DNA of 64,000 bases from Gemmiger formicilis (GTDB lineage Bacteria > Bacillota_I > Bacilli_A > RFN20 > CAG-826), in the NCBI GenBank assembly GCA_963626345.1, contig CAVFXI010000015.1:12485-76484 (forward strand), read 5' to 3'. This document shows positions 4,281 to 43,507 of this stretch, piece after piece. The notes beneath the pieces were generated by a model, which did no database searches, had not been told where the DNA came from, and worked only from the letters and a program-made list of their open reading frames with translations. Every line of letters begins with the position of its first letter. Within the stretch, counting starts at the first letter, position 1. The position numbers and the translations under genes are program-made.

Positions 4281-5528
4281 ATGGAAAACAAAGTCATTGC
4301 AGTAATAGACATGAAAGCTTTTTATGCGTCAATTGAATGCGTTGAAAGAGGACTTGATCCTTTAAAAACACTTCTTGCAGTAACAGATACTGCTAGAAAA
4401 GAAGCAACAATTGTTCTTAGTGTTTCGCATGCACTAAAAATGATGGGTGTTCCATCAAGATGTAGAAGAAAAGAATTACCAAAAGATAAAGATATAATTT
4501 TAGCGGTCCCTCAAATGGAAAAATATGTTAAAAAAAGCGCAGAAATCGTCTCTATATTCCTTGATTTTGTTGGTCAAGATGATATTCATATTTATTCAAT
4601 TGATGAGTGCTTTTTAAATCTTGGACCTTATCTAAAATTATATAAATGCACACCTAAAGAACTTGTTAAAAAAATATTAACCAAAATTAAGGACCAAACA
4701 GGTTTAATTGCAACTGCTGGGATTGGGCCTAATATGTTTTTAGCTAAAGTTGCTGATGATATAGAAGCTAAAACAAATGAAGATTTTATTGCTGAATGGA
4801 CATACGATGATGTTCCAAAAAAATTATGGCCTTTAAAACCTTTGAATAAAATGTGGGGAATAAGCATAGGATATAGTACAAAACTAAACTTATTAGGAAT
4901 TTATACTGTAGGTGATTTGGCAAATTACGATAAAGAAGAATTAATTGATAGATTTGGTATTCTAGGCGCCGAACTTCATAACCATGCAAATGGAATAGAT
5001 GAAACAGATATTAGAGATAAATATTTACCATTAAATAAGGGTCTTTCTTTGGGACAAGTCTTGATGCGAGATTATACAAAAAAAGAATCCATTCTAATTT
5101 TAAAAGAAATGTGTGACGAATTAACTATTAGACTAAGAAAAATAAATAAAAATTGTGGCTGCGTACATTTAGGAATAGGATATTCAAGCGCTGTAGATGG
5201 CGGATTTTTTCATCAAGTTAAATTATTGGCTCCTTCTTCAGTTAATAGTGATTTATTAAAAGCAATCATGTATTTATTTAACACATATTGCGAGGATAAA
5301 CCAATTAGAAGAGTATGTATTTCGTATACTGATTTATCAAATAAAGCAACTCAACAACTTTCATTATTTTCAGATATTGAATCACTTGATGATGAAGAAG
5401 AAATGTATAAAACATTGGATGAAGTTATGGAAAAATTTGGTAAGAACAGTGTCTCAAGAACTAGTGCTTTAACAAAATCAAGCACAATAAAAGAAAGACA
5501 TAACCAAATAGGAGGTCATAGAAGATGA
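4281..5528 (+). CDS. Y-family translesion DNA polymerase (DinB/UvrX-like)
   Basis: N-terminus VIAVIDMKAFYASIE (IMS/UmuC family catalytic Asp region), about 415 aa. Followed by an overlapping yolD-like gene, as in the Bacillus uvrX-yolD pair. Confidence 0.85.
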   Translation: MENKVIAVIDMKAFYASIECVERGLDPLKTLLAVTDTARKEATIVLSVSHALKMMGVPSRCRRKELPKDKDIILAVPQMEKYVKKSAEIVSIFLDFVGQDDIHIYSIDECFLNLGPYLKLYKCTPKELVKKILTKIKDQTGLIATAGIGPNMFLAKVADDIEAKTNEDFIAEWTYDDVPKKLWPLKPLNKMWGISIGYSTKLNLLGIYTVGDLANYDKEELIDRFGILGAELHNHANGIDETDIRDKYLPLNKGLSLGQVLMRDYTKKESILILKEMCDELTIRLRKINKNCGCVHLGIGYSSAVDGGFFHQVKLLAPSSVNSDLLKAIMYLFNTYCEDKPIRRVCISYTDLSNKATQQLSLFSDIESLDDEEEMYKTLDEVMEKFGKNSVSRTSALTKSSTIKERHNQIGGHRR

Positions 5529-9197: not shown

Positions 9198-11177
9198 TTA
9201 TAACTCAGCTTTAAGTTCAAACAAAATATCCCTTAATTCAATGGCTCTTTCAAAATCAAAATCTTTTGCCGCTTTCTTCATTTCGGATTCGATTTGCGAA
9301 ATCTTCTTTTTAAGTTCGCTCTTACTCATCTTACCCTTATTTTCAATCGCTTCCTCTTCCGATTTCTTAAAGTTTGTTATTGGAGGTTTAATTTCTTTAA
9401 TAATTGTTTCAGGAATAATTCCATTTTCTTTGTTATATGCTTCTTGAATTGACCTTCTTCTATTTGTTTCATCAATACAATATTGCATCGAATGAGTGAT
9501 AGAATCTGCATACATGATTGCTATACCATTTTTATTTCTTGCAGCACGCCCAACAACTTGAATAAGGGATCTATTACTTCTTAAGAATCCTTCTTTGTCT
9601 GCATCTAAAATACCAATCAAACTAACTTCTGGAATATCCAGACCTTCTCTTAATAAGTTAATACCAACTAAAACATCATATTTACCCTTCCTTAATTGGT
9701 AAATAATTTGGCTTCTTTCTAAAGTTTTACATTCACTATGTAAATAAACAGTTTTGATGCCTTTTTCTTTTAAATATTTGGTTAAATCTTCGGCCATTTT
9801 TATTGTAAGCGTAACAATCATTGTTCTTTCATGATTTTCAATACGCTTTTTAATTTCAAACAATAAATCATCAATTTGACCTAATGTTGGTCTCACTTCA
9901 ATCTTTGGATCTAAAAGCCCAGTAGGACGAATAATCTGTTCGGCAAATGTGTTATTTGTTAAATTAAGTTCGTAATCTCCAGGAGTAGCTGAAGTAAAAA
10001 TCACTTGTGATATTTCTTTTTCAAATTCGCTAAAATTTAATGGCCTATTGTCTAAAGCACTTGGCAATCTAAAACCATAATCGACAAGAGTTTGTTTTCT
10101 TGAATGATCGCCATTATACATGCCTCTAATTTGTGGAACTGAAACATGCGATTCATCAATAATCATTAAATAATCTCTTGGAAAATAATCTAATAAGCAG
10201 AAAGGTTTTTCTCCTGGCTTTCTTTTATCAATATATCTTGCATAGTTTTCAATGCCTGGGCAAATTCCAAATTCCATAAGATTTTCAACATCTTGTTTTG
10301 TTCTCATCTCAATTCTTTCAGCTTCAAGAGCTTTTCCTTGACTTTTAAAAAATTTAACTCTTTCATCAAGATCTTCTAAAATTTCATTACAAACACTTTT
10401 AACTCTCTCGTAAGTTGACGCGTGATCGTATGCAGGATAAATTGGATAAGTTTTAAATTGTTCAATAACTTCGCCAGTTACAAAATTCACAGATGAAATT
10501 GATTCGATTTCATCATCAAAAGTAGAAATTCTTAAAAATTGTTCTTTTGAAGATATTAAAAAGATATCAATAACATCGCCATTTACTCTAAAAGTACCTG
10601 GTGCAAAATCAATATTATTCTTTTTATATTGCGATTCAATTAGTCTTTTTATAAATTGCTTTCTATCGATTTTTTCATTAATCCTAACTTCGAAAACAAG
10701 TTTAATATATTCGCTAGGATCTGTAAGTCCATATATTGATGCAACAGAAGCAACAATAATAGTATCCCTTCTTTCAAGTATGGAATTAATTGCACTAGTA
10801 CGCATCATTTCAATTTCTTCGTTCATTAAAGCACTTTTATCAATATAAGTGTCACTTGAAGGAATATATGCTTCAGGTTGATAAAAATCGAAATTACTTA
10901 CAAAATATTCAACTCTATTATTAGGAAATAAATCTTTCATTTCTGAATAAACTTGACCAGCAAGTGTTTTATTTGGTTCTAAAATAATTGTTGGTTTTTG
11001 TGTTTTTTCAATGATATTAGCCATAGTAAAAGTTTTGCCAGTACCAGTAGCACCAAGCAATATTTGCTCTTTTTTACCTTCATTGATACCATCAACTAAT
11101 TCTTTAATTGCTTTTGGTTGATCTCCTGTAGGTTTAAAAGAACTAACAATTTTAAAAGGCGTATCACTCTTTATCAT
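9198..11177 (-). CDS. uvrB: excinuclease ABC subunit B UvrB
   Basis: 659 aa; Walker [11 protein letters not shown], helicase motifs, and a C-terminal UvrB/UvrC interaction domain ([25 protein letters not shown]). Confidence 0.95.
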
Positions 11178-37783: not shown

Positions 37784-37924
37784 TTATTTTTTATTTTTAT
37801 ATTTCTTGCTCAACAATACAAAAGTTATTGTAATAACAATTGCTCCTCCAAGAAAAACAACTAACACCCATAACCATAATGGTTTTGGATTAATATTTTC
37901 AGCTAATAAACTTAAAAAATTCAT
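37784..37924 (-). CDS. possible 46-aa single-TM peptide (MNFLSLLAENINPKPLWLWVLVVFLGGAIVITITFVLLSKKYKNKK)
   Basis: Hand-translated small ORF below the ORF-track size cutoff. Its stop is 13 nt before the pfkB-like start; no SD. Confidence 0.25.
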   Translation of the reverse strand: MNFLSLLAENINPKPLWLWVLVVFLGGAIVITITFVLLSKKYKNKK

Positions 37925-37942: not shown

Positions 37943-38572
37943 TCATTTATTTTTCTGTTTTTTCTCAGAAGCCCTTTTCACATAATCACCGAGATATGGA
38001 AATATAACAATCAATAAACTAAATAAAAAGGCAATCCAGAAAACAAATACTGGTTCATAAGATTTAAAGAAAAAATAAAAAGAAGCTGAAAGAGACCAAA
38101 AGAATAACAAAAGCAAAGTTCTGCTATATTTAAGTCTTCCAGTAATCAAATTTATTATAAAAATAGTTAATGGAATAAACGGAATTATAAATAATAATCC
38201 TGCATATTTTTCAACAGAATCGTAAATTGAACGGACGCTTAATAAGGAAACTTCTAAAATGATAATTATCGTAATAAAAATAATTAAAATAAAAATTATT
38301 TTGATCCAAATTTCTCTTTTTTTGATTGCTGCATCTAATATCTTTTCATCCACATCTTTAAAATCATGTTCTTCAAATAAATATTCAATTGGAACACCAA
38401 AAAAATCTGCAATTTCTTTTAACATTTCCGCATCAGGAAGAGAATCCCCTCTTTCCCATTTAGAAATAGCTTTATTACTATAATGCAATTTATCTGCCAA
38501 CTCGCTTTGAGTTAGCTTTTTACCTTTTCTTAAATAGGTAATATTTTTTGCAATAATTTCCTTTGTGCTCAT
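37943..38572 (-). CDS. membrane-anchored XRE-family HTH regulator
   Basis: N-terminal HTH_3 (LTQSELADKLHYSNKAISKWERG) followed by three hydrophobic helices. Confidence 0.7.
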   Translation of the reverse strand: MSTKEIIAKNITYLRKGKKLTQSELADKLHYSNKAISKWERGDSLPDAEMLKEIADFFGVPIEYLFEEHDFKDVDEKILDAAIKKREIWIKIIFILIIFITIIIILEVSLLSVRSIYDSVEKYAGLLFIIPFIPLTIFIINLITGRLKYSRTLLLLFFWSLSASFYFFFKSYEPVFVFWIAFLFSLLIVIFPYLGDYVKRASEKKQKNK

Positions 38573-38653
38573 ACATAAATATTAATTCAAAACAAATAAA
38601 AAAGCGACCATCAATTTAATGTGGTCGCCTTTTGAAAAAGAGAAAAAATTTTC

Positions 38654-39283
38654 TTATTTAGATTCTGGTTTATCTTCAATATCACCAACAACTTGTGAAT
38701 CAACAAAATTGTTGAATTTTTTTGCATGGTGAACAACATATAAAGCAAAACAAAGTTGAACAACCCCAGCCATTATTAAAATAATGCCAACCAAAACAAA
38801 TAATACTGAAACAACATTATTTCCAGCTCCACTATAATAAACACCAAGAACAGTTGAACCTAATGCTGAACCAATAATACCGAACACCAATTGCAAAACT
38901 TGGATTGTTGAACACCCTAAGACTATAAATCCCTTTAATGCTCTTACAATCAAAATTATGCCAAACCCAATTAAACTAACACCAATAATCAATGGCAAAA
39001 GTTCAACTAAAAGCAATGGGTCAACAAATAATAAAATTGATAAAACAACCAAAATTAAACCGCTTAAAAAATCGCCACTCAATAAAGGTGCACTAAATGT
39101 AATAGATGCGACAACAAGTAAGATGCCGTTCATCATAAAATAAACACCGACCATGTAGCCAATAAATGCATATAAATTAGCGTTGTTATTAAAACAAATA
39201 ATTAATATACCAAGAATAATTAATAATGCTGCTTCAATATATACGGTCCATTTCCATCTCCCAAAAATTTCTTTCATTTTCAT
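38654..39283 (-). CDS. DUF308/HdeD-like multi-pass membrane protein
   Basis: 212 aa, about 6 TM, Gly/Leu-rich helices. Start moved to the ATG after the GGAGG SD. Confidence 0.55.
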   Translation of the reverse strand: MKMKEIFGRWKWTVYIEAALLIILGILIICFNNNANLYAFIGYMVGVYFMMNGILLVVASITFSAPLLSGDFLSGLILVVLSILLFVDPLLLVELLPLIIGVSLIGFGIILIVRALKGFIVLGCSTIQVLQLVFGIIGSALGSTVLGVYYSGAGNNVVSVLFVLVGIILIMAGVVQLCFALYVVHHAKKFNNFVDSQVVGDIEDKPESK

Positions 39284-39371
39284 AACCTCCAACTCTTATT
39301 ATAAGATAATATTTTTTTAATTAAATCTATAAAGAGTAGATTTTTTTGATTTTTTTATTTATATAAATAAC

Positions 39372-40715
39372 TCACTCTAATGATTCAACAGCTTTTAAGA
39401 TTTTAAAATCAGTAATTTTCTTCTTTAATTTCTCAAGTGTTTTGTCTTGAATCTTTCTACATTCATCAATTATATCGTTTGCAGATGATTGAATTGTTTG
39501 AGCTTTCTTTAACATATCTTCAATCGATTTATTAAGCGAAGAAAAAGACTTAACCAAAATTTCTTCTTTAAAATCTTCAAACATTTTTATAGCTTCTTCT
39601 TTATTTATTAAATCTTTTCTCTCGGTGGTAATATAGCTTGCATATTTCACAGAAAGCGATGCAAGCAAACTTAAAAAAGTCATAAAATATTCAGGTCTAA
39701 CAACATACATTTTGTCGTATTCGCTTACTCTAAAAACTGGCGCATCATTAACAGCCCTGTCTCTTTCAAGATTACTTACCAAAATAGCATAATCGCATTT
39801 CTTTTTTCTTCGATCAGTATCAAGTTTCTTATAGTGTTCACTATTTTTATTTTTTGAAGTACTATTTGGATTCTTATCTTTCATATCTAAAAGAACAGAT
39901 GTTAAAAGGGTATTCTCTTTTTTAGAAGAATCTGCATAAACTTTAAAAATAAAATCGCCTTTGGTTTTCTTTGAATCAAGTTCATCTTCAACCGCAATAT
40001 TGTCTTTAATCCATTCGCAATTTTCAAATCCATATATTGCATGCTCTTGATATTGGTTGTCACACCATTGCTCTAAGTTTTCGCCAAGATCTTTAATTCC
40101 AACCATTGATTTTGCAAAAGTTAATGAATTGTTTTGGGCTTCAAGTTCTTTAATTTTTGCATTCATTTCTTTTTCTTTATTTTGAACTGCTTCACTTACT
40201 TTAATATCGACTTTACTTAGTTCCAATTTTAAATTACTTATTTCTTCATCTTTAATTTGTTTAACTTTATCAATTTCTTTCATCTTTTCGACTTCATACT
40301 TTGATTCAATAAGTTTTTTGTCGTTTTCAAGAGTAGAAATTTTATTTTCGTAAGAATTTTTGATTTGTTCTTTTGCAAGCCTTAAATCACTATCTTTTAT
40401 GCTATTCATTTTTTCAATTTCGGAATTTAATTGATTAATTTTGTCTATTAATTTTTGCTTATCTTCGTTATTTTCGCTTTCACACTCTAATTTGATTTTT
40501 TGAATTTCTAAAGTGTGCTTCTCATTTTGCGCTTTTAATTCCTTTTCAAGCATTGAACGAAATTCAATCTCTTTTTCTTTATTTATTAAATTTTGAAGAA
40601 AAGAAACATCTACTTTATTTAATGTTGCCAAATCGATAATGTCACCTTTTTTCGCATCTTCTAATAATTCAATTTCAGTAGAATTGTTTACTTTAATTTT
40701 ATCGTTTATGTTCAT
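39372..40715 (-). CDS. coiled-coil protein with a C-terminal PD-(D/E)xK-type nuclease-like domain (RmuC/DUF2130-like); third gene of the XRE-ImmA operon
   Basis: About 200 aa of Lys/Glu heptad-rich coiled coil. Then GIKDLGENLEQW...KGDFIFKVYAD...VLLDMKDK...CDYAILVS, with the D...(D/E)xK spacing seen in RmuC/DUF2130 proteins. 4-nt start/stop overlap with the ImmA gene. Confidence 0.5.
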   Translation of the reverse strand: MNINDKIKVNNSTEIELLEDAKKGDIIDLATLNKVDVSFLQNLINKEKEIEFRSMLEKELKAQNEKHTLEIQKIKLECESENNEDKQKLIDKINQLNSEIEKMNSIKDSDLRLAKEQIKNSYENKISTLENDKKLIESKYEVEKMKEIDKVKQIKDEEISNLKLELSKVDIKVSEAVQNKEKEMNAKIKELEAQNNSLTFAKSMVGIKDLGENLEQWCDNQYQEHAIYGFENCEWIKDNIAVEDELDSKKTKGDFIFKVYADSSKKENTLLTSVLLDMKDKNPNSTSKNKNSEHYKKLDTDRRKKKCDYAILVSNLERDRAVNDAPVFRVSEYDKMYVVRPEYFMTFLSLLASLSVKYASYITTERKDLINKEEAIKMFEDFKEEILVKSFSSLNKSIEDMLKKAQTIQSSANDIIDECRKIQDKTLEKLKKKITDFKILKAVESLE

Positions 40716-41272
40716 AATTGTTCCTTTCTTTCCTTTTCTTTTTTCATTTCTTTTATTCTTTTAAATGCTGCGTATGTTGCACATTCAGGGGAAACACAAC
40801 AATTATTCTCAATTTCTTCAACAGACATATCTTTTGTTTCTGCTGGCGGAACAAGAAGGTACCCTGCTAATGCATTTGCTTGCCATTCAGGATCTTTATA
40901 TGCTTGTGGTTTTTCTTCTGATTCCTTTGGATGTCTACCAGTTACTGTCATTAAAAAGAAATGACATAATTCATGTGTTAGTGTAAATCTACAACGTGGA
41001 TCATCACAACATGCTCCATCAAATTGCGATTCTTTAATAAATAAAGTGTTAGTTAAAAAATCATATTTGGCTAATTCCCCTTCACCAAATATTTTGTTGT
41101 TATCATCTAAAATTTGATACTCAAAATCCAAAAAGTTTTCGTTATTTTGCATAGACTCTAAAACATCAACAATAGGAAATTTTAGACTCTTACAATTAAA
41201 TAAATTCCTTATATTCTCTGCATATACTTTTAGTTGATGAGTATTTGTAGGAGCACAGAAATAATAAGACAC
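40712..41272 (-). CDS. ImmA/IrrE-family zinc metallopeptidase (CapP-like)
   Basis: HEXXH (LTHELCHFF) followed by the family signature PEWQANALAGYLLVP. Confidence 0.8.
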   Translation of the reverse strand: MSYYFCAPTNTHQLKVYAENIRNLFNCKSLKFPIVDVLESMQNNENFLDFEYQILDDNNKIFGEGELAKYDFLTNTLFIKESQFDGACCDDPRCRFTLTHELCHFFLMTVTGRHPKESEEKPQAYKDPEWQANALAGYLLVPPAETKDMSVEEIENNCCVSPECATYAAFKRIKEMKKEKERKEQL

Positions 41273-41273
41273 T

Positions 41274-41636
41274 TTATTTTTTCTCCTCCTCTTCTAATAG
41301 CTTTTTAAGTTTATCGAGAGTATTTGGATCAATATTTTTAATAGACCTTGCAAACATTAAAGAAACATTTTGTTGCTCTGCATCCATTGTTTCTAAATTC
41401 AAAGAGACTTTTTGCTGCGTAATATCAAAAGCATTTTGCAAATCTCTTTTTTGTTCATTGCCCAAATTATAAATATTTGAAATGTCCTCGACCCATTTTG
41501 CTGGAATGTTCTTTTTCCCAACTTCTACTGCGCTGAGAAACGAAGTGCTAACATTTAGTTTTTCAGCCATATCTTTCATATTTTCAAAATTATCTAATCT
41601 AATATGACGTAAAACTTTTCCAAATTCTGTGTACAT
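41274..41636 (-). CDS. XRE-family HTH regulator (CapH/ImmR-like), first gene of the operon
   Basis: HTH_3 (MYTEFGKVLRHIRLDNFENMKDMAEKLNVSTSFLSAVEVGKKNIP). Start placed at the Met with a GGAGGGA SD 7 nt upstream; a sigma70 promoter lies inside the ORF-track N-terminus. Confidence 0.8.
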   Translation of the reverse strand: MYTEFGKVLRHIRLDNFENMKDMAEKLNVSTSFLSAVEVGKKNIPAKWVEDISNIYNLGNEQKRDLQNAFDITQQKVSLNLETMDAEQQNVSLMFARSIKNIDPNTLDKLKKLLEEEEKK

Positions 41637-41651
41637 ATGGGTCCCTCCACT

Positions 41652-41680
41652 ATAATAAAATAAATAAATTTGCTTGTCAA
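41652..41680 (-). promoter_or_regulatory. near-consensus sigma70 promoter of the XRE-ImmA-nuclease-like operon
   Basis: Minus strand reads TTGACA-17 nt-TATTAT, then AGTGGAGGGACCCAT ATG. Confidence 0.6.
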
Positions 41681-41748
41681 CCATAAAGGTTGATAAATTT
41701 AACTTAATTTGTTTAAATTCTTTTCTACAAAATAATTATACAAGAATC

Positions 41749-42447
41749 TTATTCTTTTTCTTTAAAAAGTTTTATTTTTTCAAACTCTTTTTCTTCTAAT
41801 GGATTGTATTTATATTTTTTAATCATTTTTATAATTCTTTTTGCAACTTTATAGTCATTAAATAATTTTATTAGTTCATCATATATCTTTTGAATTAATT
41901 CTTCTAACGATCGCCCTTTTATAAACTCAACTTCAGTATCGCTAACCATTTCAAAAGTAAAACCTTCTAAAACAAAACCATCAATTAATAAAAGCACAAT
42001 TTTTATATAAAACAAAAATAGATTGGTTAAATTTTTCCTATGACTTCCTTTTTTCGCAGTTTTAATATTCTTAAAAATCTCAAAATCTTCAATAGAATAA
42101 CCACGAGGCAAACAGTAAATTAAAATAAAACAATTAATTAGCGATTCGCTTTCTTCATTAAACTTATTTCTTAAGATTTTTTCTTTTTCAAAATGGGCAT
42201 AAAAATTAACTAATGAATCACTAATAAAATAATCTCTGCAGTCTTTATTTATATATGTAGCTTGAAAATAATAAGATATCAAAACTGCATAAAAAGTTAT
42301 TCTTTCAATTTCATTAAATTTTTCATCTACTGAAATATCATAATTTTTAAACAAATCTAAAATATTCTTCTTTATATTATAAAAAGAAGTAAAACAACTT
42401 TCTTGGATGGTTCTAACCTTCCATTTATACTTAACATCGAAAATCAT
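41749..42447 (-). CDS. hypothetical protein, 232 aa, no recognisable domain
   Basis: ORF with an SD (GGGAGGAA). Its leader is the second copy of the C7 cassette. Confidence 0.5.
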   Translation of the reverse strand: MIFDVKYKWKVRTIQESCFTSFYNIKKNILDLFKNYDISVDEKFNEIERITFYAVLISYYFQATYINKDCRDYFISDSLVNFYAHFEKEKILRNKFNEESESLINCFILIYCLPRGYSIEDFEIFKNIKTAKKGSHRKNLTNLFLFYIKIVLLLIDGFVLEGFTFEMVSDTEVEFIKGRSLEELIQKIYDELIKLFNDYKVAKRIIKMIKKYKYNPLEEKEFEKIKLFKEKE

Positions 42448-42492
42448 AAAATTCCTCCCTTCACTATTAATAGGGGGGGAATTTAAAAAATT
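42448..42492 (-). repeat. Copy 2 of the 45-nt leader cassette AAATTTTTTAAATTCCCCCCCTATTAATAGTGAAGGGAGGAATTTT, with a C7 tract
   Basis: 37 of 37 core positions match copy 1 at 17855..17899. Placed between the stop of the 77-aa HTH gene and the ATG of the 232-aa gene. Confidence 0.75.
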
Positions 42493-42510
42493 TTTAAAAA
42501 ATTTTAAAAA

Positions 42511-42744
42511 TTAATTCGTTGCTTTTCTAACTAATACATAAATATCGTTATTTCTATCATAAATTAATTCACGTCCATCTCTCATGAATGTAAGATAATT
42601 ACGAATACTTTTCAAATAACGATAAAAAGACACATCAGTAATTTGAAGTTTGTCAGTTATTGACTTTTTTTCCATGCGCCCTCTTGTTTCAAGAGTTTCA
42701 AGCATGTATAGTAATGCGATACTTTTTCTCATTTTTATCCCCAA
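42511..42744 (-). CDS. small winged-helix DNA-binding protein (HTH_11/DeoR-N-like; resembles the N-terminal domain of WYL-type regulators)
   Basis: 77 aa; ...KKSITDKLQITDVSFYRYLKSIRNYL fits the HTH_11 pattern (VS.RTI.RDI..L). Confidence 0.4.
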   Translation of the reverse strand: MGIKMRKSIALLYMLETLETRGRMEKKSITDKLQITDVSFYRYLKSIRNYLTFMRDGRELIYDRNNDIYVLVRKATN

Positions 42745-42922
42745 TCTAAAAACTATTGCTTTAACTTATTTTTACTTAAATTTATTTTTTTGTCTATTTC
42801 AATTTCTTATTTTTTTAAAATAATTCGATTAACACTATCTATTTTTGATATTTAAAAAATTTATTTTCAACAAAACAGTAATTTTGTGCACTTTGCAATT
42901 CATTTAATTTATAATCTTTTGT

Positions 42923-43507
42923 ATGGAAAAAACGATTTATTTAATGAGACATGGAAGAACAATTTTTAACATTTTAAAGATTGTTCAAGGTTATGGTTCT
43001 GATAGCCCATTAACTATTAAAGCACGCAAAAAGGGGAAAGAAATCGCTAAATATATATGCGAGAAAAACATTAAATTCGATAACGTTTATGCAAGCGATA
43101 CAATGCGTGCAACAAAAACTGCAAAAATAGTTACAAAAAATAAATATAAAGTAATCAAGGTAAGAGACTTAAGAGAATTAAAATTTGGTGATTTAGAAAA
43201 AACTCACCAACATTTATCCTTCACAACAATTTTTGATACTCCTGGTTCTTTTGATGCATTTAATGGCGAAACTCCTGAGCAAGGTGCAAAAAGAATTTAT
43301 GATTGCTTAACTTCTTTAATCGAAAAGGAAGAAAACAATCAAATATTATGCGTTTCTAGTTCTTGTGTAATGATGAGTTTTTTAAAATATTATGCAAACG
43401 ATAGATATAAAAAAATTAGAGAAATAAATCGTTTCTTAAATTACACAACAATTGTCATAACTTATGAAAATGGAAAATTCAAAGTTAAGGATATAATTGA
43501 ATTCTAG
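42923..43507 (+). CDS. histidine phosphatase (phosphoglycerate mutase-family) protein
   Basis: RHG catalytic motif (LMRHGRTIFN); 194 aa. Confidence 0.8.
   Translation: MEKTIYLMRHGRTIFNILKIVQGYGSDSPLTIKARKKGKEIAKYICEKNIKFDNVYASDTMRATKTAKIVTKNKYKVIKVRDLRELKFGDLEKTHQHLSFTTIFDTPGSFDAFNGETPEQGAKRIYDCLTSLIEKEENNQILCVSSSCVMMSFLKYYANDRYKKIREINRFLNYTTIVITYENGKFKVKDIIEF

Follow-up and report, generated by a model that had tools for sequence, protein, structure and literature searches.

A chromosomal operon linking a candidate ImmR/ImmA-type switch to a predicted DUF2130 nuclease in gut Bacilli

What does a repressor-protease pair of the kind known from prophages and integrative elements control when the gene coupled to it encodes a predicted nuclease in an otherwise ordinary chromosome? 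The question is raised by three genes on the minus strand of a 64,000-nucleotide stretch (here, the window) of the Gemmiger formicilis assembly GCA_963626345.1 (contig CAVFXI010000015.1, positions 12,485 to 76,484): an XRE-family repressor gene, an M78 (ImmA/IrrE-family) peptidase gene, and a DUF2130 gene. An original prediction, made from the letters of the sequence, had taken this trio for an undescribed defence or stress module. Here, we report a computational analysis of the locus and favour, at an even chance of being right, the reading that it is a vertically inherited chromosomal operon in which a prophage-domesticated ImmR/ImmA-type switch would control itself and a resident DUF2130 nuclease.

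The first gene (41274..41636, minus strand) encodes a 120-amino-acid (aa) XRE-family repressor with an N-terminal helix-turn-helix (HTH) and a C-terminal helical domain. The second (40712..41272, minus strand; GTG start) encodes a short, 186-aa M78 zinc metallopeptidase with a peptidase domain and a helical linker, and the third (39372..40715, minus strand) encodes a 447-aa DUF2130 protein with a PD-(D/E)xK core at about residues 207 to 357. Open reading frames (ORFs) were called at 41274-41684, 40712-41272, and 39372-40715, all on the minus strand, and the junctions, read from the sequence, are a 1-nucleotide (nt) gap (TAA-A-GTG) between XRE and M78 and a 4-nt overlap (ATGA) between M78 and DUF2130. 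The three-gene operon was thus borne out in positions, identities, and junctions, with minor corrections. The length of about 120 aa given for XRE stood, but the span up to 41684 did not: the 136-aa ORF call (41274-41684) contains the promoter within it, and the start was therefore placed at the ATG at 41636, which follows a GGAGGG ribosome-binding site (41643-41648) and gives 120 aa, the length also found in the gene calls of 9 independent strain contigs.

Sequence and fold both place the regulator pair among the homologs of CapH/CapP, IrrE, and ImmR. XRE gave weak Pfam matches to HTH_3/HTH_31, a PADLOC match to capH at 3.5e-7 over nearly its full length, a match to HTH_VI at 1.2e-9, and PDB profile matches that include ClgR, SinR, DdrOC, and ImmR. 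M78 matched the Peptidase_M78 profile (29.6 bits; cutoff, 22) and the PADLOC capP profile (5.3e-9, covering profile positions 64 to 120 of 242). Its zinc motifs, HELCH (H100-E101-x-x-H104) and PEWQAN (E129), are all invariant in the subfamily; together with the profile matches, HELCH and the third ligand, the glutamate E129, confirm the HTH and ImmA/IrrE zinc peptidase identities first assigned. In an AlphaFold2 model (predicted local distance difference test [pLDDT], 92.8), the peptidase domain is followed by two linker helices, and the fold matches CapP and IrrE, with about 145 residues aligning to the 278-aa CapP chain. A GAF domain was sought in the 186-aa protein by length, model, and CapP alignment, and none was found; the loop at residues 105-128 (FFLMTVTGRHPKESEEKPQAYKDP) holds no cysteine. 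In the repressor, the segment VSLMFAR (residues 90-97) is invariant in the ortholog alignment, including F95-A96-R97, which we propose as a candidate protease cleavage site by analogy with characterised pairs: ImmA cuts ImmR (127 aa) at F95-M96 (PMC8960796), and CapP cuts CapH at F82-R83.

Upstream lies the near-consensus sigma-70-type promoter that had been predicted, TTGACA-17-TATTAT (41652..41680, minus strand; -35 box, 41675-41680; -10 box, 41652-41657). It matches 11/12 consensus positions and is the top site in a 4.5-kb scan (38500-43000), in which the total of promoter-like sites was not above that in shuffles; the -35 box is kept in orthologs as TTGACA or TTGATA. Overlapping this box is a candidate operator, the palindrome TTATCAACC-tttat-GGTTGACAA (41674..41696, minus strand; 9-bp stem, 5-nt loop). 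The arms, T(C/T)AAC(C/T)-N5-GGTT(G/T)A, are conserved, the 5-nt spacer is variable, and the position is the same in all DUF2130-linked orthologous loci. Conserved arms around a variable spacer are the footprint expected of a real binding site, and XRE is the protein that would bind it. The perfect core TCAACC-N5-GGTTGA is present as a single copy in the window, where a search for extra copies gave no evidence of a regulon: 16 loose matches were observed against 10.6 expected, nearly all of them intragenic and none upstream of uvrB or dinB. A palindrome at 37871-37885 (TAACCATAATGGTTT), intergenic and upstream of pfkB, shares the AACC-N5-GGTT core and the ATAA spacer with the trio operator; it could be a second operator, a site for a membrane XRE protein (37943-38572), or chance.

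The product of the third gene matched DUF2130 (PF09903/COG4487) at 137.6 bits (gathering cutoff, 26.7; E value, 5.9e-40) over profile positions 2-251 of 255. In its model (pLDDT, 79.7), a small N-terminal beta domain leads into a single helix (residues 38-203), after which come an alpha/beta core and, at the C terminus, another long helix. The core has a restriction-endonuclease-like PD-(D/E)xK fold, and its nearest structural neighbours are the defence nucleases Can2 and McrC and restriction enzymes. D254 and K279 are invariant in 52 DUF2130 sequences, and position 277 is acidic (consensus, D); in the model, D254 begins strand 255-260 and D277-M-K279 closes strand 270-279. The original prediction had given this 447-aa protein a PD-(D/E)xK fold with D...(D/E)xK residues and had staked the module on the fold; the fold check and the 52-sequence alignment support both. 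The modelled fold and its conserved catalytic residues are thereby confirmed, and the protein is a predicted nuclease. Two details changed. The predicted coiled coil of about 200 aa corresponds to a long N-terminal helix that is present but spans about 165 aa (residues 38-203). Of the label "RmuC/DUF2130-like," DUF2130 membership held, but RmuC was an architectural analogy alone: a Pfam scan at an E value of ≤0.01 returned DUF2130 and no RmuC (PF02646), and RmuC family membership was rejected in favour of bona fide DUF2130/COG4487. In RmuC, too, a PD-(D/E)xK domain comes after a long coiled coil, a likeness at superfamily level alone, and both families appear in a PD-(D/E)xK survey as being of unknown molecular function (PMC3424549). 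The DUF2130 protein had no match in PADLOC-DB v2.0.0, PHROGs, or NCBIfam, nor by tblastn in 50,697 phage records; its single-sequence search reached about 1,000 clusters at 50% identity. DUF2130 is named in the full text of four papers, in none of them functionally, and the literature on DUF2130, COG4487, and MG148 yielded no functional study.

The surroundings of the trio are those of an ordinary chromosome (organism GC content, 29%). Genes in the window include uvrB, secA, prfB, dnaX, holB, a Y-family polymerase gene, glyA, pfkB, a CTP synthase gene, and sugar-utilisation genes, and neighbours of the trio encode His_Phos_1, GGGtGRT, M18 peptidase, CobW, PfkB, SHMT, ROK, and CTP synthase proteins. 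A search of the window for recombinase, phage, and known defence genes came up empty, and mobile-element genes are missing from the 39 kb to one side of the trio and the 22 kb to the other, as well as from syntenic contigs as long as 248 kb. Among labelled relatives, the nearest are metagenome-assembled genomes (MAGs) of uncultured gut Bacilli. Two contigs carrying other labels, Slackia isoflavoniconvertens (L001) and Parabacteroides goldsteinii (L022), have 99% and 79% protein identity to the locus, respectively, and are almost certainly mis-binned in those MAGs.

The trio lies between a His_Phos_1 gene and a DUF308/HTH-membrane/pfkB/glyA block, and this order is kept in genomes whose DUF2130 proteins are 54-80% identical. 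The XRE-M78-DUF2130 arrangement recurs at the same chromosomal region where M78 is 43-52% and DUF2130 is 35-38% identical, and it was also found in further metagenome contigs (L035-L038). The co-occurrence sought in other genomes therefore extends down to 35-38% DUF2130 identity. Divergence of the trio tracks that of its housekeeping neighbours. In one relative (L023), DUF2130 is 72%, PfkB 70%, and M18 peptidase 74% identical; in another (L032), DUF2130 is 54%, His_Phos_1 59%, and MntP 62% identical. Conservation is higher in the two regulators than in the nuclease. Most trio loci retain, exactly or almost, the tight coupling by a 1-nt gap and an ATGA overlap, and one locus (L030) has a 116-nt gap between M78 and DUF2130. 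Among strain contigs, defined as those with an identical neighbouring gene (GGGtGRT protein), the trio block is present in 9/9 complete ones; it is also present in 11 similar contigs. Within-species ratios of nonsynonymous to synonymous polymorphism (pN/pS) are 0.10 for DUF2130, 0.05 for M78, and 0 for XRE, with similar values for flanking genes, and the trio is under purifying selection. Synteny, parallel divergence, fixation, low pN/pS, and the operator footprint together identify a selected, vertically inherited operon and not a mobile or variable island. A regulatory region of an ICE (integrative and conjugative element) or prophage was accordingly rejected: there are no recombinase or phage genes, the housekeeping flanks are syntenic, and the trio is fixed in the sampled strains. 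An ICE or prophage integrase near the trio, named in the original prediction as the finding that would overturn it, was not found, although the pair still descends from the prophage ImmR/ImmA type.

Outside this clade, all 18 of the other DUF2130 loci with inspected flanks (18/18) were stand-alone, in varied and mostly housekeeping contexts in Mollicutes-like bacteria, Streptococcus, and Clostridia. Many stand-alone proteins carry an N-terminal zinc ribbon, and one stand-alone locus keeps a nearby M18 peptidase gene as residual synteny. In a neighbour-joining tree (no support values), trio-linked DUF2130 proteins nest among stand-alone ones; this nesting among genes in housekeeping contexts is why we regard DUF2130 as a resident host nuclease.

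The regulator pair has a different ancestry. A scan of metagenomes and viral contigs with the M78 alignment recovered the pair at 30-37% identity in many contigs, as an XRE gene of 116-130 aa followed by an M78 gene of 165-180 aa, often overlapping. Flanks of these relatives are rich in integrases, serine recombinases, endolysins, holins, Rha, and terminase, and 19 of the loci are on IMG/VR viral contigs. Judged by such gene content, the relatives are prophage lysogeny modules of ImmR/ImmA type, and their place among phage genes and on viral contigs supports a prophage origin of the pair. Only the closest subclade (M78 identity of at least about 42%) is chromosomal without mobile-element genes, and its downstream gene is usually DUF2130. 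The simplest history would be that a host captured a prophage immunity switch. In three loci of sister lineages (L028, 6776-7705; L031, 3516-4481; L039, 4727-5692), XRE-M78 is followed by a conserved 309-321-aa protein in place of DUF2130, which has a zinc ribbon at its N terminus and a pair of transmembrane helices at its C terminus; upstream of these loci is a different conserved palindrome, AACA-N4-TGTT. The 309-aa alternative cargo was considered as a hidden DUF2130 protein and rejected (hhalign against the DUF2130 alignment; probability, 0.1).

The operon could work as follows. An XRE dimer would bind the palindrome over the -35 box and hold the single promoter at a low, self-limiting level. 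A stress signal, which by analogy with characterised relatives would be DNA damage or aberrant DNA, would activate M78, and M78 would cut XRE in its C-terminal dimerisation region, probably at F95-A96-R97. Loss of repression would release a pulse of all three proteins, nuclease included, and repression would be restored when the signal ends. Strong homology and conserved anatomy underpin the proposed regulatory logic; repressor binding and cleavage, the inducing signal, and the nuclease substrate are inferred. The inducing signal of CapP/IrrE cannot be transferred because the GAF sensor is missing, and only short ImmA-type proteins offer a fair analogy.

Several points weigh against the favoured reading. 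Missing from the peptidase is the GAF domain, which in CapP/IrrE makes up the single-stranded DNA (ssDNA)-binding groove (PMC13228613), and the mechanistic steps are extrapolated from homology. The operator, unique in the window, gives no independent tie to an SOS-like regulon, and no LexA box was found upstream of 20 stand-alone DUF2130 genes, so that there is no independent tie of the family to DNA damage either. In sister lineages, the pair precedes a zinc-ribbon membrane protein with two transmembrane helices (2-TM), a low-molecular-weight (LMW) phosphatase, or a 260-aa protein of unknown function (then tsaE); the pair may thus be the conserved unit, and its tie to DUF2130 may not be as specific as it seems. 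Finally, distant DUF2130 genes are in some cases accessory and plasmid-borne, as on pNP40, which keeps a defence role alive.

Which named system does the trio most resemble? In ICEBs1, PimmR drives transcription of immR, immA, and int alike (PMC8960796). Here, likewise, repressor, protease, and a co-directional third gene share one promoter, with probable autoregulation; the 120-aa repressor is similar in size (about 120-127 aa) and in build, an HTH with helices at the C terminus; M78 is short and without GAF; and the repressor has a conserved Phe at position 95. Unlike ICEBs1, the locus has no integrase, excisionase, or other mobile-element gene nearby, its cargo is the host DUF2130 gene, and it is fixed and vertically inherited. 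The "CapH/CapP-like" label given to the pair was right as far as the PADLOC capH and capP matches go, which the two regulators alone gave, but it fails on the missing GAF domain, the missing switch cysteine, and the co-directional cargo, and a strict CapH/CapP system was rejected on these grounds. CapP has an HTH linker and a GAF domain, whereas the peptidase here ends after two linker helices, and a cysteine-switch loop occurs in about a third of CapPs. All CapH/CapP-like pairs described by Lau et al. (2022) lie upstream of the regulated operon on the opposite strand; in contrast, the cargo here is co-directional, overlaps the protease gene by 4 nt, and is no known immune system. For lack of GAF and because of the co-directional cargo, the module resembles immR-immA-int of ICEBs1 more than CapH/CapP. 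It differs from DdrO/IrrE (PprI) of Deinococcus too: a GAF domain is part of IrrE, DdrO acts through a common motif on a dispersed regulon whereas one operator was found in the window, and the Deinococcus regulators do not share an operon with one sole effector. No named system was found that combines XRE/M78 with DUF2130, in agreement with the original prediction.

Could the trio nonetheless be an anti-phage or abortive-infection system, in which phage-induced DNA damage or ssDNA trips the switch and DUF2130 degrades phage or host DNA? We consider this possible, though unlikely. XRE/M78 pairs regulate many immune operons, the structural neighbours of the nuclease core point the same way, and the same regulator subclade also precedes the zinc-ribbon/2-TM protein, whose architecture is effector-like. 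A DUF4011 helicase is encoded near one stand-alone DUF2130 homolog, and 69 plasmid records carry distant DUF2130 genes, among them a Bradyrhizobium copy flanked by insertion sequences. Another case is the Lactococcus lactis phage-resistance plasmid pNP40 (NC_010901.1, 11074-14944; L134), where a 427-aa DUF2130 gene, 32% identical over 69% of the window protein, is directly upstream of a gene for an 846-aa TrlF-family AAA-like ATPase (PADLOC Ppl, 7e-18; weak GajA and AriA matches), and the pair adjoins two cytosine methyltransferase genes of a restriction-modification type. That DUF2130 gene is plasmid-borne, however, and its partner is an ABC/OLD-like ATPase and not an XRE/M78 switch. The named lactococcal systems (PMC11381338, PMC13064643) do not include this DUF2130/ATPase pair, which is, in its own right, an unnamed candidate two-gene defence pair. 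Against an immune role of the trio stand the lack of any DUF2130 match in the defence and phage libraries or in the phage records, the housekeeping flanks, and the absence of mobile-element and defence genes from the window. The trio is also fixed and vertical across deep splits with low pN/pS, where accessory immune genes typically differ; regulator-free orthologs are common, which speaks against an intrinsically toxic nuclease; and the layout departs from that of opposite-strand CapH/CapP systems.

Is DUF2130, then, a mere passenger, and the XRE/M78 pair the functional unit, either as a DdrO/IrrE-like stress regulator with distant targets or as the fossil of a decayed prophage? This seems to us decidedly unlikely. 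The chromosomal pair of related genomes does precede other genes (those for the zinc-ribbon membrane protein, the LMW phosphatase, or the 260-aa protein followed by tsaE), the 116-nt gap of L030 loosens the link to DUF2130, the regulators are better conserved than the nuclease, and the pair has prophage ancestry. The window also contains a dinB-like Y-family polymerase gene (4281-5528, plus strand) and uvrB (9198-11177, minus strand). No LexA/Cheo box was found near either; the sole match in the window with one mismatch (27374) falls within an ORF. An organism without a canonical LexA regulon would be consistent with this result, although 64 kb is too little to settle the point, and a pair that runs a non-LexA damage response would fit it. 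However, coupling is tight in most trio loci, the association holds down to 35-38% DUF2130 identity, the 64 kb hold a single perfect operator, which is close to neither uvrB nor dinB, and purifying selection on all three genes leaves no decaying relic. A toxin-antitoxin-like role, with XRE as the antitoxin, COG2856/M78 or DUF2130 as the toxin, and addiction or stress-induced growth arrest as the outcome, is very improbable: the M78 core weakly matches the fused XRE-M78 "spr1629 family repressor/antitoxin" and RmrA models, and XRE matches the PHROG "plasmid antitoxin with HTH domain" (E value, 0.009), but the matches fall far under curated cutoffs (18 bits versus 335), the locus is off mobile elements and vertically inherited, DUF2130 is widespread without any partner, and M78 keeps the catalytic residues of a processing protease, as ImmA does.

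We return, then, to a domesticated switch on a resident gene. Under this reading, DUF2130 is a normal host gene of this bacterial group, not an imported toxin, whose most likely role would be to process damaged or recombining DNA. A host role in DNA processing is favoured because the trio is fixed, vertical, and under purifying selection and because the family is missing from phage records and defence libraries; that many orthologs lack a regulator suggests, further, a nuclease that is tolerated without one.

The genes around the trio were considered separately. Two orphan genes on the minus strand lie upstream of it, one of 232 aa (41749-42447) and one of 77 aa (42511-42744; called as 73 aa). 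Neither product matched Pfam, PADLOC, PHROG, or NCBIfam, and tblastn of the 232-aa protein against phage genomes returned no match; it forms 4 clusters in 5.8 billion proteins. Both genes are the fastest diverging in the block (48-74% identical) and are missing from more distant trio loci. With no family matches, few clusters, and absence from distant trios, they are a lineage-specific orphan insertion outside the conserved module, and as lineage-restricted orphans they are uninformative on defence, for which the original prediction had cited them. Its defence-island reading does not survive: the flanks are housekeeping genes, the neighbours are orphans, the trio is fixed and vertical, and there is no arms-race signature. 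A defence island was rejected on the housekeeping flanks and the presence of the block in all 9 complete strain contigs. Immediately downstream of DUF2130 come two membrane-protein genes (37943-39292, minus strand), one for a DUF308 protein and one for an XRE-family HTH protein anchored in the membrane (HTH_3 with transmembrane segments); both keep their synteny with the trio in every close relative (L023, L032, L036, and L136-L144). On the other side, genes for a 236/230-aa protein and GGGtGRT (PF14057; 43612-45326, plus strand) are 96-99% identical in protein sequence between genomes whose adjacent genes are 55-90% identical, with a within-species pN of 0, which points to extreme constraint or recent spread.

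The locus adds no validated defence system; what is new is an ImmR/ImmA-type switch with host-derived cargo. It would be a clear-cut case in which a host gene has acquired a domesticated prophage immunity module and retained it over long evolutionary time, and a GAF-less M78 retained in such a role would mean that the sensing mechanism of CapP/IrrE cannot explain the whole superfamily. A bolder version, to which we give only a slender chance, is that the captured switch constitutes a LexA-independent DNA-damage response in a reduced-genome lineage of gut Bacilli, with DUF2130 as its dedicated output. If so, DUF2130, which by annotation includes MG148 of Mycoplasma genitalium, would be a previously unrecognised damage-inducible repair or recombination nuclease, and the GAF-less M78 would sense damage by a mechanism other than that of CapP/IrrE. 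For DUF2130/COG4487, a widespread nuclease-fold family without an assigned function, the operon provides a first regulatory handle: since the characterised relatives of the switch to which the gene is wired all react to DNA damage or ssDNA, it yields a testable hypothesis on when the nuclease is needed.

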